Positions 4,476 to 13,983 of a stretch of DNA of 64,000 bases are shown here, piece by piece. The notes below the pieces were generated by a model. That model saw only the letters and a program-made list of their open reading frames with translations. It had not been told where the DNA came from and did not search any database. The position numbers were made by a program, and so were the translations under genes. The stretch is from the IMG/VR virus record IMGVR_UViG_3300037504_000149; one strand, 5' to 3'. The first letter of the stretch is position 1. Each line of letters starts with the position of its first letter. Source of the DNA: a virus. Taxonomy: Duplodnaviria; Caudoviricetes.

Positions 4476-5399
4476 CTGCCTCCCCGCCCGCCGGGAATGA
4501 TCCTGGCGGGTAGGGATGCTATTACCACACAACCGCCCCCGTGTGGGCAAAGGAGGGTGCGATGAGCAATGATTTGAAGAGTATGATGCTTGACGTTGCC
4601 GCCGATGAATATGGATTTTGGGGTTATACTGATGAGCTGGAGCCCGGTGAGCTGGACGAACTGAAAAGCGCTGCTGAGGAGCTTGACCTGCGTGTGGTAA
4701 TTGAGCACGGCATCCCCGGTGTTTACATTCGACCGCTTGACACTGGTCTTGGAATTAAGGAGGGTGCGATGAGAACCGGAGAAATCTATACACAGCTACA
4801 CAAACTAGAGGTTAAGATCGACAGCATCAAAGGTATGATGCACAATGAATACCAGCGACGGCTTGTCGAGACGACTGAACCGGAATTTTCTAAAGAAATG
4901 AGATCTCTATGGAACACTAAACGCTACTTAGAAATGGCGAGTTCAGCATTACGCGCCGCACAGCATAACTTTACTACCTTGGTATAGCACACTTGTTAGT
5001 AGGGAAAAGGAGGCACAGATGGGTACTTTAGTGCTTTTCGTGTTGCCAGCAAGTCTGTTGGGTTTACTATTGTGTTGGTCTGCGCCTCCCATCATTGCCT
5101 TTCCTGCTGCTATACTTTTTGTGGTAGGTGTATTCACATCAATCATCTACCTATTACTTGATCCTTTTGGGGAGTTTCGTAAATGAGACACCACTTCAAA
5201 CAACCCCAGGATAAGGATGGTAAACCTATCCACATTCAGCAGAGAGTTGCAGTAGACTCTACTCCTGAAGACGTTTGGAAAGGTGGTTTCTCAGGCACGG
5301 TCATTAGAATTATCAGTACCTTTAAGGTTACGGTATCTGATTTGAAGGGTCATGCCTTTGATGTACCTGCACACAAGACAAAAGTTTTGGAAGGTTAAA

Positions 5400-6140
5400 A
5401 TGAATGATGCTCTAGGTGATCGTATGAAGAAGTATGAGAATACTACAAGGTATTACCTACCTCCCCGTACACCTATCATTATTAGAGTAGATGGTAAAGC
5501 CTTTCACACTTATACTAAAAATTGTATAGAACCATTCAGTAATGTTCTAATAAACATAATGAATGAAGTTGGGTTACATCTTTGTGAGAATATCCAGGGT
5601 GCTGAACTAGCATATATTCAAAGTGATGAAATTTCTATATTAGTTCATTACTATAAAAAGTATACTTCATCTGCATGGTTCGATAACAACTTGCAGAAGC
5701 TGGTAAGTGTTTCAGCTAGTCTAGCTACAGAAGCATTCATTAACAGTTTGATGCGGCGTCCCATCGCTTGGCAGTCACAGTTTGGTGGTAAAACACCTAA
5801 CTTTGATAGCCGAGCTTTTTGTATACCAGTAGCGGACGTATGCAATTACTTTATCTGGAGGCAGAAAGATTGGGAACGTAATAGTTTGCAACTACTAGCA
5901 AGAAGTTTATACTCTCATAACGAATTACACGCTAAGAAGCGTGATGAATTGCACGATATGTGTATAGCTAAAGGTAATAACTGGAACCAGCTACCAGGGT
6001 ATTATAAACGAGGTAGATGTGTCAAGTTACTTTGTAATACTGATACTCCTGTTACTAAACGAGAGTGGGTTGTAGAAACTCCTCCCATATTTACTAAAGA
6101 TAGAGATTACGTTGAAGAACATCTGTTTGTTGAACAATGA
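5400..6140 (+). CDS. thg1: tRNA(His) guanylyltransferase Thg1-like protein
   Basis: LGDRMKKYE, IIRVDGKAFHTYT, YIQSDEIS, FDSRAF, YFIWRQKD motifs typical of Thg1/TLP. Confidence 0.92.
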   Translation: MNDALGDRMKKYENTTRYYLPPRTPIIIRVDGKAFHTYTKNCIEPFSNVLINIMNEVGLHLCENIQGAELAYIQSDEISILVHYYKKYTSSAWFDNNLQKLVSVSASLATEAFINSLMRRPIAWQSQFGGKTPNFDSRAFCIPVADVCNYFIWRQKDWERNSLQLLARSLYSHNELHAKKRDELHDMCIAKGNNWNQLPGYYKRGRCVKLLCNTDTPVTKREWVVETPPIFTKDRDYVEEHLFVEQ

Positions 6141-11222: not shown

Positions 11223-11299
11223 TTGTTGCGGGTGAAGAAGAACTCATATATTCGTTTGGTCGATAGGCGAATATAATTCCATTTCACCACCCACAAAAC

Positions 11300-11328
11300 T
11301 TGAAATTGAAGCTTCGATGTGTTATACT
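11300..11328 (+). promoter_or_regulatory. Sigma70 promoter upstream of the TnpB/Cas12-like gene
   Basis: TTGAAA-17-TATACT with extended TG; a second TTGACA-17-TATAAC at 11190-11218. Confidence 0.75.
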
Positions 11329-11333
11329 GTTTT

Positions 11334-11600
11334 CAGTGGCTGGCGCGGTGGTGACGACTAACCTCCAGTCATTGAACGGGGATGGGACGCCTCCCCACAT
11401 ACGAGACCCCTCTTGGTAGGTTTTTTGGTAAAAGACCGAGGTAAGGGCTTTCTCCTACAACACTCAAGACGATCCTGGATGAGAGTGTAAACAAGAGTGG
11501 AGTCTGCTACCTGACGAGGTAGTCACAAAGTAGGGTAGCTCCCTCGCCTCCCCCTAGAGTACGGCCATATTCTAGGGGGAGGAGAATAAAAGAGAAGACT
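11334..11600 (+). ncRNA. Structured leader/ncRNA candidate upstream of the nuclease gene
   Basis: ORF-free ~300 nt between promoter and ATG with consecutive hairpins (CAGTGGCTGG/CCAGTCATTG; ACACTC/GAGTGT; CCTCCCCCTAGAGTA/TATTCTAGGGGGAGG). Confidence 0.45.
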
Positions 11601-11637: not shown

Positions 11638-12876
11638 ATGGATCTAGTTGAAAAAATTAGGCTGTTCCCTACCGAGGAACAAAACAAGCAACTCCGAGAG
11701 TTGGCTGCGTTCTGTCGTGACGCGGCAAACTACATCTCGGAGTTTATCTATACACATCGTTTGCGCTCCAAGGGTGTAGGGACGCTCTACAAACCGGATT
11801 GGGAAACGCGAGCTGCAAAAGATGATCCAGACGCCGTTTCACTTTATAAGGTATTGTGCAGTGCTTTCGATTTTAGTGGCAAGAAGTCTCTAGCCACCGC
11901 GATTATTCAAAGGGTAAAATCATCCTATAAGTCCACCAACGCACGAAACATCACACAAGGGGATGCCTTTTATCGGGCAGGTAAGGCGAAGTATCGTCAA
12001 TTGAAGAAAGATGGAATAAAAGGGGAAACACTTAAGGCTGCTGCTAAGCTTACTCAAGAAGAAAAGAACGAGATAGCTGAACGGTATGGCATGACAAAGC
12101 CGCTCAGCTTCAATCCCTTTATTCCTACCCTAAAACAGAATACTAAATGGAAGGAAAACACAGTCAGTTTCTTCGGTATCTCAAGTATACCTTTTGCGTC
12201 TCGACTGGAAAACATAGAGTCTCGTGACGCGATTGTTAAGCTCAACAAAAACAACAAGTGGCTGCTACACCTTCCCGTAGAGACCTCCGAAGAGGAAGTT
12301 TACGAACCTGCTGGTTGGTTGGGAGTAGATGTCGGACTGGCAAACCTGGCTGTCACCTCTGAGGGCACGGTCTATTATGGCGGTGAGAACCGTCGCCGTG
12401 GTGAAACACGGTTCAAGCAACGTCAGCGGATGCAGAAGAAGGGTACTAAATCCGCGAAGCGTAGACTGAAAGCTCTTTCCGAGAAAGAAACAAGGTGGCG
12501 AAAAAATCTCTGCCACGAGATCAGCACCGCTATCGTCCGACGTGCGAAAGAGCTTCGCTATGGTGTAGCGGTAGAAACGCTGAAAAACATTCGGCGAAAC
12601 GTGAGACAATCGAGGAAGCTGAATCGTCAGCTTCACGGTAGTTTTCCTTTTGGTATGCTTCTTTCCATGCTAGAATATAAAGCAGAGAAAGAGGGTGTAC
12701 CATTCCAGAAAGTGGATCCTAAAAATACCTCCAGGACGTGTCCAAAGTGTGAATATGTAGCAGAGAAAAACAGAATTAGCCGTACACACTTTAAATGTGT
12801 GGAATGCGGCTACAAAAACTACGCAGACCATGTGGCGGCAACTAACATTTCTCGGATAGCAGAAACCGGGATATAA
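11638..12876 (+). CDS. CRISPR-associated TnpB-family / compact type V (Cas12f/Cas12n-sized) RNA-guided nuclease
   Basis: N-terminal KIRLFPTEEQ (OrfB-like); RuvC-I GVDVG, RuvC-II AVETL, Zn finger CPKC...CVEC, RuvC-III ADHVAATNI; directly upstream of a CRISPR array. Confidence 0.9.
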   Translation: MDLVEKIRLFPTEEQNKQLRELAAFCRDAANYISEFIYTHRLRSKGVGTLYKPDWETRAAKDDPDAVSLYKVLCSAFDFSGKKSLATAIIQRVKSSYKSTNARNITQGDAFYRAGKAKYRQLKKDGIKGETLKAAAKLTQEEKNEIAERYGMTKPLSFNPFIPTLKQNTKWKENTVSFFGISSIPFASRLENIESRDAIVKLNKNNKWLLHLPVETSEEEVYEPAGWLGVDVGLANLAVTSEGTVYYGGENRRRGETRFKQRQRMQKKGTKSAKRRLKALSEKETRWRKNLCHEISTAIVRRAKELRYGVAVETLKNIRRNVRQSRKLNRQLHGSFPFGMLLSMLEYKAEKEGVPFQKVDPKNTSRTCPKCEYVAEKNRISRTHFKCVECGYKNYADHVAATNISRIAETGI

Positions 12877-12883
12877 TGTTGGT

Positions 12884-13020
12884 GGCGTCGGGGCGTAGGG
12901 AGACGCCCATACAGCGGAGACGAGATCCGAACTGATGGCGTAGCACAGACGATAGGATCACTTGAGTCTACTGCTGAGCACAGCACTACTTTTCGAGAGC
13001 CTTCTGGTGACATAGAAGGC
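12884..13020 (+). ncRNA. Putative tracrRNA (omegaRNA-like scaffold)
   Basis: Hairpin GGGCGT-AGGGAG-ACGCCC whose loop is complementary to the repeat end CTCCC; long stem 12912-12976; anti-repeat GCACAGCAC 12978-12986; closing hairpin GCCTTCT/AGAAGGC. Confidence 0.7.
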
Positions 13021-13025
13021 CGGGA

Positions 13026-13166
13026 GGTTCTCGAAAAGGTATATTGTTGATAGTAGGATAGTTACGGCAAGGGTGCGTTTTCTAGTACATTTCTCGGGGC
13101 CTGAAAGTGGGGGTTCTCGAAAAGGTGAAAATAAACCTAGTAATATCAACAAGTTAAAAGACTGGG
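13026..13166 (+). promoter_or_regulatory. CRISPR leader with IHF-like site and direct repeats
   Basis: GGTTCTCGAAAAGGT at 13026 and 13112; TATCAACAAGTTA (13144-13156) matches the IHF consensus WATCAANNNNTTR. Confidence 0.65.
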
Positions 13167-13983
13167 GTTTTAACGACTTCTGCGGTGTGCTTGTGCATCT
13201 CCCTGGTAGCTTCTTGGGGTTTTTGTATCGTTTCGGAAGTTTTAACGACTTCTGCGGTGTGCTTGTGCATCTCCCTACAAAATACATCATCGGTTGGCCT
13301 AAGTTGTCCTTCTGTTTTAACGACTTCTGCGGTGTGCTTGTGCATCTCCCTATATAGAAATCATGAACTCAGGAGGTTCACTATGAGTTTTAACGACTTC
13401 TGCGGTGTGCTTGTGCATCTCCCATACTGCATCGACCAGACACGCCTACCCTATCATTAGTTTTAACGACTTCTGCGGTGTGCTTGTGCATCTCCCTATT
13501 GGTAGTGAGACAGTGGACAAGGCCATAAATGGCCGTTTTAACGACTTCTGCGGTGTGCTTGTGCATCTCCCATACCATTGAGCCTGATCTGGTAGTGCTA
13601 TGCCTCATTGTTTTAACGACTTCTGCGGTGTGCTTGTGCATCTCCCAGCATAGTAAACCTCCTGAGTTCATGATTTCTATATAGTTTTAACGACTTCTGC
13701 GGTGTGTTCGTGCATCTCCCCTGCTGCTACATCGGTCCTAACACAGATCAAAGGGAGTTTTAACGACTTCTGCGGTGTGTTCGTGCATCTCCCCTGCTGC
13801 TACATCGGTCCTAACACAGATCAAAGGGAGTTTTAACGACTTCTGCGGTGTGTTCGTGCATCTTCCTATAGTAGAGAGTAGAAAGTTACATACATGGTCT
13901 CGGGTTTTAACGACTTCTGTGGTGTGTTTGTGCATCTCCCACCCTTCGCCATACACCTTCCGCAAAGTGTTTGTGTATCTCCC
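13167..13983 (+). CRISPR. CRISPR array: 11 full 37-bp repeats GTTTTAACGACTTCTGCGGTGTGCTTGTGCATCTCCC plus a terminal half repeat; 35-38-bp spacers
   Basis: Repeats start at 13167, 13239, 13314, 13387, 13460, 13535, 13610, 13684, 13757, 13830, 13904; partial repeat 13967-13983; degeneration at the right end; spacers 8 and 9 identical; last spacer shortened to 26 bp. Confidence 0.98.

Follow-up and report, generated by a model that had tools for sequence, protein, structure and literature searches.

A structured RNA between a phage TnpB-like nuclease gene and its CRISPR array probably corresponds to the front part of a TnpB omegaRNA

A stretch of 64,000 nucleotides (nt), referred to as the window, was analyzed from the IMG/VR virus record IMGVR_UViG_3300037504_000149 (Duplodnaviria; Caudoviricetes), where the gene of a TnpB-like nuclease of 412 amino acids (aa), P0001, is followed by a CRISPR array. 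The interval between the gene and the array probably encodes, on the + strand, a tracrRNA (trans-activating CRISPR RNA) that corresponds to the front part of a TnpB omegaRNA, the back part being contained in every CRISPR repeat. A structured + strand RNA was established at the level of comparative analysis, and from the sequences we infer the production of this RNA, its ends, its two pairings with the repeat, and the activity of the nuclease. A split omegaRNA had already been proposed in a sequence-only reading of the window, and all of the elements listed there were read directly at their positions. As judged from sequence comparison, the value of the locus is its well-resolved RNA architecture with identifiable omegaRNA relatives.

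Close relatives of P0001 were rare: only four were found among 5.8 billion proteins, with identities of 90, 82, 81, and 65%, and the next relatives were ordinary TnpBs at 30-36% identity. DNA of relatives was available from L001 (65% identity, a metagenome-assembled contig in NCBI) and from L002 and L012 (82%, Logan assemblies). In each of them the gene order was the same, with the nuclease followed by a structured interval of ~290 nt, the array, and a DHH phosphoesterase gene, and the effectors of the lineage were 412-416 aa long. No new members of the clade emerged from a search of viral and genome contigs for exact tracrRNA and repeat patterns, where nine matches in genome contigs proved to be unrelated coding sequence or tandem repeats, and a metagenome scan returned distant TnpBs only.

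The structured interval begins with hairpin 1 (12891-12908, +), in which a 6-bp stem (GGGCGT, 12891-12896, with ACGCCC, 12903-12908) closes the loop AGGGAG (12897-12902). The loop bases GGGAG (12898-12902), the proposed pseudoknot strand, are perfectly complementary to the last five bases of the repeat. Hairpin 1 was invariant across all three loci, and in L001 the stop codon of the nuclease falls inside it, as omegaRNAs overlap the end of tnpB. The long stem, or stem 2 (12912-12976, +), is composed of outer pairs between CAGCGGAGAC (12912-12921) and GTCT-A-CTGCTG (12966-12976), inner pairs read directly between GATCC (12924-12928) and GGATC (12955-12959), and an apical part CTG-A-TG/CA-CAG that closes the conserved loop GCGTAG (12938-12943); one of its pairs is a conserved G-U. 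It is followed by the putative anti-repeat 1, GCACAGCAC (12978-12986, +), which can pair with repeat nt 21-30, GUGCUUGUGC, with one bulged U.

Downstream of anti-repeat 1, the closing hairpin proposed earlier does exist, but it extends beyond CCTTCT/AGAAGG to a 20-bp stem (12989-13008 with 13019-13038, +) with a minimum free energy of -33.3 kcal/mol and a z-score of -8.2. This hairpin had no clear counterpart in omegaRNAs, and it includes a second copy of GGGAG within GGGAGGT (13022-13028). It was also considered as a decayed copy of the repeat, an idea that was dropped after its local alignment to the repeat was not significant. A candidate anti-repeat 2, TTGTTGA (13044-13050, +), could pair with repeat nt 4-10; its core GTTGA, located after the 20-bp hairpin, was invariant across all three loci, and the predicted pairing comprised 8 bp in L001 and 9 bp in L012, as also obtained there by cofolding, and 7 bp including two G-U in the window. 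The region 13109-13146 (+) before the array contains a second copy of GGTTCTCGAAAAGGT and a putative promoter-like TCGAAA-18-TAATAT. The direct repeat GG(A/G)GGTTCTCGAAAAGGT occurs twice in the window, once as the 3' strand of the 20-bp hairpin (13023-13040) and once overlapping the promoter-like sequence (13109-13126). The second copy was kept in L012 and partly in L001, and it could pair alternatively with 12990-12999. No Rfam family matched the RNA interval.

Several lines of evidence support the fold and its strand. The proposed intramolecular stems were 96.4% paired across three loci, as opposed to 40-49% when the partners were slid, and seven pairs had changed on both sides in only three sequences. 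Compensatory changes occurred in the long stem (A-U to G-C), in the GAUCC/GGAUC stem (U-A to A-U), in the apical stem closing the invariant GCGUAG loop (G-C to A-U), and at four pairs of the 20-bp hairpin. Since these changes span loci at 65% protein identity, they point to selection on RNA structure. Several conserved G-U pairs would read C-A on the - strand, and the fold z-score was -4.96 on the + strand versus -2.84 on the - strand.

The comparison with the omegaRNAs of the nearest TnpBs, which had been named as the check on the split, rests on P0010, P0030, P0049, and P0064, the nearest full-length TnpB relatives. These are single TnpB genes in phage-like contigs, located among helicase, primase, and single-stranded DNA-binding protein genes. 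At the four loci, a plan of three helices (hairpins 1 and 3 with a long stem between them) was 96.6% paired with 16 compensatory pairs; hairpin 3 is followed by a linker of 2 nt and then by 5 nt, after which conservation ends. The hairpin-1 loop complements the 5 nt before the guide, and this pairing covaried. A covariance model of the four omegaRNAs recovered 73 further copies in IMG/VR contigs, each at the end of a TnpB gene, and the pseudoknot was 94% paired in 70 distinct omegaRNAs versus 17-53% when slid. The pairs included GTCAA/TTGAC (30 occurrences), GTAAA/TTTAC (10), and GTCAT/ATGAC (7), with the rarer GTAAT/ATTAC, ATCAA/TTGAT, and TTCAA/TTGAA occurring twice each. One omegaRNA family with this covarying pseudoknot was common to L014, L016, L017, L019, and most of L022-L101. 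The pseudoknot of the phage TnpBs agreed with the ISDra2 structure, where positions -5 to -3 pair with -103 to -105 and the pseudoknot is stacked on stem 1 (PMC10097598); the same omegaRNA has been drawn as tracrRNA-like and CRISPR RNA (crRNA)-like parts joined by a loop (PMC10097598).

The window followed the omegaRNA plan element by element, in the same order and with near-equal linkers. Hairpin 1 and the long stem lie at the 3' end of the nuclease gene, and the hairpin-1 loop, of the GUCAA type in omegaRNAs, reads AGGGAG in the window. The linker after hairpin 1 is AUA in both the omegaRNA of L099 and the window, where the junction of hairpin 1, AUA, and stem 2 is the common CCAUAC. The second helix of the omegaRNA corresponds to the long stem at 12912-12976. 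The linker before the guide-proximal stem is 2 nt in omegaRNAs and 1 nt in the window. The guide-proximal stem itself, formed by hairpin 3 in omegaRNAs, would be formed in trans by GCACAGCAC and the repeat segment GUGCUUGUGC, the following 2-nt linker would be AU, and the pseudoknot strand, of the UUGAC type in omegaRNAs, would be the repeat end CUCCC. The loop and the pre-guide 5 nt (GGGAG/CUCCC) were thus complementary at matching positions, and the guide that follows directly in omegaRNAs would be the spacer. The RNA was not continuous: past 12986, neither the pseudoknot strand nor the 3' strand of hairpin 3 was present, and both were found in each repeat. As in TnpB omegaRNAs (ISDra2, PMC10097598; the phage family R1/R2), the RNA would start at the 3' end of the nuclease gene or inside that end. 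It differs in consisting of two pieces with the guide taken from an array, in having GGGAG/CUCCC instead of GUCAA/UUGAC, and in the extra 20-bp hairpin. In addition, unlike in the phage TnpBs, the protein has no C-terminal tail whose codons overlap hairpin 1.

Searches with covariance models provided reciprocal matches between the two groups of RNAs. Model R2 was built from TnpB omegaRNAs only, and model R3 was built from the tracrRNA. The best R2 match in the 7 kb around the locus was at window 12885-13019(+) (8.8 bits, E 0.06), and the best in L001 was at 11232-11402(+) (14.9 bits, E 0.0012), with matches on the + strand only. In the opposite direction, the two best matches of R3 over 296 kb of TnpB loci were at omegaRNA sites, in L099 (20 bits, E 0.009) and in L053. 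Hairpin 1 was aligned to hairpin 1 of the omegaRNAs, and R3 aligned GCACAGCAC with the 5' strand of hairpin 3, the two sharing AAGC. Because the scores were low (8.8-20 bits), more weight was given to the position and strand of the matches than to their E-values.

The CRISPR array (13167-13983, +) begins 290 nt downstream of the nuclease gene and contains 11 repeats of 37 nt, with the full sequence GTTTTAACGACTTCTGCGGTGTGCTTGTGCATCTCCC, and a 17-nt terminal remnant. Its position beside the effector was kept in the relatives, with the spacer 3' of the repeat, as in type V loci. Each repeat closes with GUGC-AU-CUCCC, and the spacer follows immediately. The remnant, GTGTTTGTGTATCTCCC (13967-13983), begins exactly at the base opposite C12986, so that the last repeat was indeed truncated to the 17-nt half that is proposed to pair. 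Repeats were decayed and truncated at the far end of the array, truncated repeats retained the 3' 13-17 nt, and a conserved AT-rich leader was present on the 13166 side. The conserved G-U pairs, the degenerate repeats at the far end, and the retention of the 3' part in truncated repeats together argue for the + strand orientation, including that of the crRNA, as previously suggested.

The repeat variants GTGTTCGTGC, GTGTTTGTGC, and GTGTTTGTGT retained the 9-bp pairing with anti-repeat 1 through a shifted bulge or a G-U, with duplex energies of -14.4, -12.0, and -10.1 kcal/mol, respectively, and one L012 repeat lacked the bulged base, giving a perfect 9-bp duplex. The end of repeat 10, CTTCC, which had been singled out as an exception, still allowed pairing with the hairpin-1 loop through one G-U. 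Similarly, all variants of the pseudoknot 5-mer were C-to-T changes that retain a G-U: CTTCC in the window, CTCTC in L012, and TTCCC in L001. These three natural variants lend mild support to the pairing of the loop with CUCCC.

The L001 array tail (12140-12290) also contained several truncated repeats consisting of only the last 13-16 nt (GTGCGC(A/G)TCTCCC, GTGCATCTCCC), each preceding a spacer-like sequence. In the window, the variant middle part was present in repeats 8-11, and the repeat-spacer units 8 and 9 (13684-13829) were 100% identical 73-nt copies, representing a tandem duplication. Spacer 3 (13351-13386) and spacer 7 (13647-13683) were reverse complements over 28 nt, followed by one mismatch, and therefore the array appears to target both strands of one site, apparently taken from two slightly different variants of that site. 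The shared sequence resembles a ribosome-binding site and start codon. No protospacers were found in the window or in the relative loci examined, nor among 50,697 phage records.

In the proposed mechanism, the parts of an omegaRNA would be divided between two RNAs. The tracrRNA would supply its first two helices, hairpin 1 and the long stem, together with the 5' strand of hairpin 3; the repeat would contribute the 3' strand of that hairpin, the pseudoknot strand of 5 nt, and the 2-nt linker between the two. The guide-proximal stem would be rebuilt in the ribonucleoprotein by pairing of GCACAGCAC (12978-12986) with repeat nt 21-30. Beyond this stem and the linker AU, CUCCC at the end of the repeat would pair with the hairpin-1 loop GGGAG to form a pseudoknot stacked on hairpin 1, and the 412-aa RuvC nuclease would be guided by the spacer that follows. 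The tracrRNA probably extends through the 20-bp hairpin to the second short anti-repeat (13044-13050), which may hold the 5' part of the unprocessed repeat. A two-part anti-repeat would thus flank the 20-bp hairpin, and the tracrRNA would be ~165 nt long. Given the 20-bp hairpin and the second anti-repeat downstream, the single guide of ~130 nt suggested earlier may prove too short.

A number of observations weigh against a tracrRNA that pairs with the repeat in this way. The whole intergenic region contained no long anti-repeat, and its pairing with the repeat (RNAduplex, both strands) was no better than that of shuffled sequences. The anti-repeat segment alone exceeded the shuffles only modestly (68/2000, 12/2000, and 86/2000). 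The pairings proposed between repeat and tracrRNA are short, with 9 bp interrupted by a bulge in one, 5 bp in another, and perhaps 7-9 bp in a third, and they were only partly kept in L001, where the distal half of anti-repeat 1 was not retained. There, the anti-repeat GCACAAACA would form with the repeat CGUGAGUGC just 4 bp (GCAC:GUGC) and 2 bp (-7.9 kcal/mol), and in two of the L001 repeats, GCGAGCGC, one of the 4 bp is disrupted. Hence, the earlier claim that repeat mutations preserve the pairing was borne out in the window and L012 but not in L001. The GGGAG/CUCCC pairing was invariant within the CRISPR clade, and hence without covariation of its own. Competing complements of the repeat end were also present in the 20-bp hairpin, namely the GGGAGGT at 13022-13028 inside the stem and, at the hairpin tip in L001 (11355-11363), GGGAGATGC, whose 9 nt are fully complementary to the repeat end GCATCTCCC. 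Finally, pseudoknot-free cofolding differed among the three loci with an outcome that depended on the spacer, and the model matches were weak in absolute terms. The intermolecular pairings nevertheless carry weight because they occur at the positions predicted by the omegaRNA of related TnpBs; at these predefined positions, a perfect complement between the loop 5-mer and the last five repeat bases has roughly 2 chances in 1024.

The strongest of the alternatives is that the whole ancestral omegaRNA was kept and rewired rather than split. Hairpin 3 would then be the 20-bp hairpin, with the 3' strand GUUGA at 13046-13050. A pre-existing array would have been captured, the loop would have been re-coded from GUCAA to GGGAG to fit the repeat end, and GCACAGCAC would be a new insertion. 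The old pseudoknot strand GUUGA would have become the second anti-repeat, now clamping UCAAC at the 5' end of the repeat. Consistent with this history, R2 matched the 3' end of the omegaRNA, uaGUUGACa, to UCGUUGAAAC past the 20-bp hairpin of L001, GTTGA was invariant in three loci at 5-8 nt past the hairpin, as in omegaRNAs, and the 5' end of the repeat, GTTTCAAC, is similar to the ancestral loop GTCAAC. However, R3 aligned GCACAGCAC, and not the 20-bp hairpin, with the hairpin 3 5' strand through the common AAGC, and the conserved CUUUAG loop was absent from the 20-bp hairpin. The guide-proximal geometry of a stem, 2 nt, 5 nt, and the guide is given only by anti-repeat 1 together with the repeat, and a likeness of 5 nt is weak evidence. 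Rewiring is thus unlikely, and if true it would represent a second route from omegaRNA to tracrRNA, inside phage genomes.

Alternatively, the repeat end might pair not with the hairpin-1 loop but with GGGAG as it recurs in the 20-bp hairpin, within GGGAGGT (13022-13028) in the window and within GGGAGATGC in L001. The duplex would comprise a perfect 9 bp in L001 and 7 bp, one of them a G-U, in both the window and L012; a 9-mer matching the repeat end would be expected ~0.001 times per 290 nt. We consider it very improbable, as the motif of L001 and that of the window do not occupy the same position in the alignment and the window copy lies within a covarying stem of -33 kcal/mol, whereas the hairpin-1 loop is the proven partner in related omegaRNAs and was invariant here. 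Slightly more improbable still is that the structured region is a mere 3' untranslated region, a terminator, or a decaying omegaRNA relic, with a nuclease that uses crRNA only or a system that is inactive. The hairpins could act as terminators, with one weak terminator-like site called at 12972-12985, and the failure to find any spacer match in the window, the relative loci, and the phage records would also suit an inactive system. Against this, the catalytic residues are intact, compensatory changes between loci whose proteins share 65% identity indicate selection on structure, and the repeat lacks hairpin 1 and stem 2, which are bound by TnpB-type proteins (PMC10097598). Transcription of the RNA and crRNAs from the minus strand has almost no likelihood, given that it is favored only by the weaker yet non-random fold (z -2.84), while the conserved G-U pairs turn into C-A, R2 matched the + strand alone in both the window and L001, and repeat decay and truncation place the leader on the 13166 side.

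With the split omegaRNA as the preferred reading, the nuclease is the next component of the locus. The gene of P0001 (11638-12876, +) was identified by profile matches and a conserved catalytic triad. P0001 matched NCBIfam guided_TnpB with 180 bits (cut-off 100) over residues 6-405, nearly its full length, and Pfam assigned OrfB_IS605 and a Cas12f1-like TNB domain. The RuvC triad D231, E313, and D397 and the CxxC..CxxC zinc finger were invariant in the alignment with relatives, so the locus has the single RuvC-type effector with intact D-E-D triad and zinc finger of a type V system. Relative to the nearest TnpBs, P0001 contains two insertions of ~15 and ~45 aa in its N-terminal half and lacks the C-terminal tail mentioned above. 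The monomer fold was predicted with moderate confidence (pLDDT 69.7), and in Foldseek it resembled Cas12f and TnpB structures about equally. The sequence was nearer to TnpBs (198 bits, full-length) than to solved Cas12f proteins (67 bits, C-terminal half only). The match to NCBIfam Cas12f2 (121.6 bits) was below the cut-off of 450, and the plain TnpB P0010 scored at least as high as P0001 in the PADLOC Cas12f models. P0001 was thus neither accepted by a curated Cas12f model nor nearer to Cas12f than to TnpB. As the two groups were not separated by Foldseek or by the PADLOC Cas12f models, an assignment of P0001 to either of them was dropped. By its sequence, the 412-aa open reading frame is a TnpB-family RNA-guided nuclease, whose activity is predicted.

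Among known systems, it is established that TnpB gave rise to Cas12 proteins on many occasions, the arrays taking a downstream position like that of the omegaRNA (PMC10691335). TranC systems have been described as transposon-CRISPR intermediates with a split guide RNA (Jin et al., 2025, Cell 188:6283, as reported in PMC13639567 and PMC13565253). The window shares with TranC a TnpB-sized effector beside a CRISPR array, the absence of adaptation genes, and, by the reading preferred here, a guide RNA split into tracrRNA and crRNA. The locus is supported as a natural example, and a clear one, of RNA splitting as a published route from transposons to CRISPR, and it involves no new principle. A 2026 preprint on TranC clade 9 (bioRxiv 10.64898/2026.03.27.714800) describes an active system from a Caudoviricetes genome, with effectors averaging 414 aa and repeats of 38 bp, and reports no consistent tracrRNA structure for the clade. 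By description alone, the present lineage is similar to this clade in its length (412-416 aa), phage-like context, and 37-nt repeats, and on that basis the locus may belong to it. In contrast, CauTranC9 was described without expanded domains, and P0001 has its two insertions.

Cas12f systems (V-F; Un1Cas12f1 7C7L and AsCas12f 8J12) also have a miniature effector with a similar fold (TM score 0.35-0.44), a long structured tracrRNA between gene and array, and a conserved pseudoknot; the anti-repeat is much shorter here. The Cas12p 'Cas12 hacker' likewise combines a phage-encoded miniature type V effector with a tracrRNA and has been described as an early intermediate from TnpB (bioRxiv 10.1101/2025.01.20.633832). 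These proteins are 500-700 aa long and are reported to require host thioredoxin (bioRxiv 10.1101/2025.01.20.633832), and membership of P0001 in the same family was rejected on its size and a distant structural match (9jfs, E 2e-7). A thioredoxin gene was observed in L001 at 5623-5949, ~4 kb upstream of the nuclease, and none was found at the corresponding place in the window.

The transposon and CRISPR forms can be viewed side by side in this group, with a large family of phage TnpBs that have an intact omegaRNA and a covarying pseudoknot on the one hand and a rare sister lineage with an apparently split scaffold on the other. RNA splitting and pseudoknot re-coding thereby become directly testable with few mutants. 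At 412 aa, P0001 is among the smallest CRISPR nucleases, and the locus offers a concrete design for its guide, in which the 5' hairpin, the long stem, and the 9-nt anti-repeat would be fused to the final 17 nt of the repeat. Should the lineage prove to be TranC clade 9, the analysis would supply the tracrRNA structure that the authors of the preprint could not define.

Besides the features described above, a TATAAT (12872-12877, +) overlaps the stop codon TAA of the nuclease gene (12874-12876). The sequence noted earlier was present by direct reading, but it was neither kept in L012 and L001 nor called by a promoter scan, and it is only a candidate -10 box. The phage contig that bears the nuclease is 229,864 bp long. 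PHROG matches among the neighboring genes were typical of phages and included a DNA ligase, methyltransferases, and the DHH phosphoesterase, and the remainder were mostly ORFans. The TnpBs of L014, L016, L017, L019, and most of L022-L101 were likewise single genes in phage contigs, often with replication genes, and no tnpA was called beside them. Additionally, a gene for a Thg1-type tRNA-His guanylyltransferase was observed in this phage-like genome at window 5352-6140 (Pfam, 98.8 bits).

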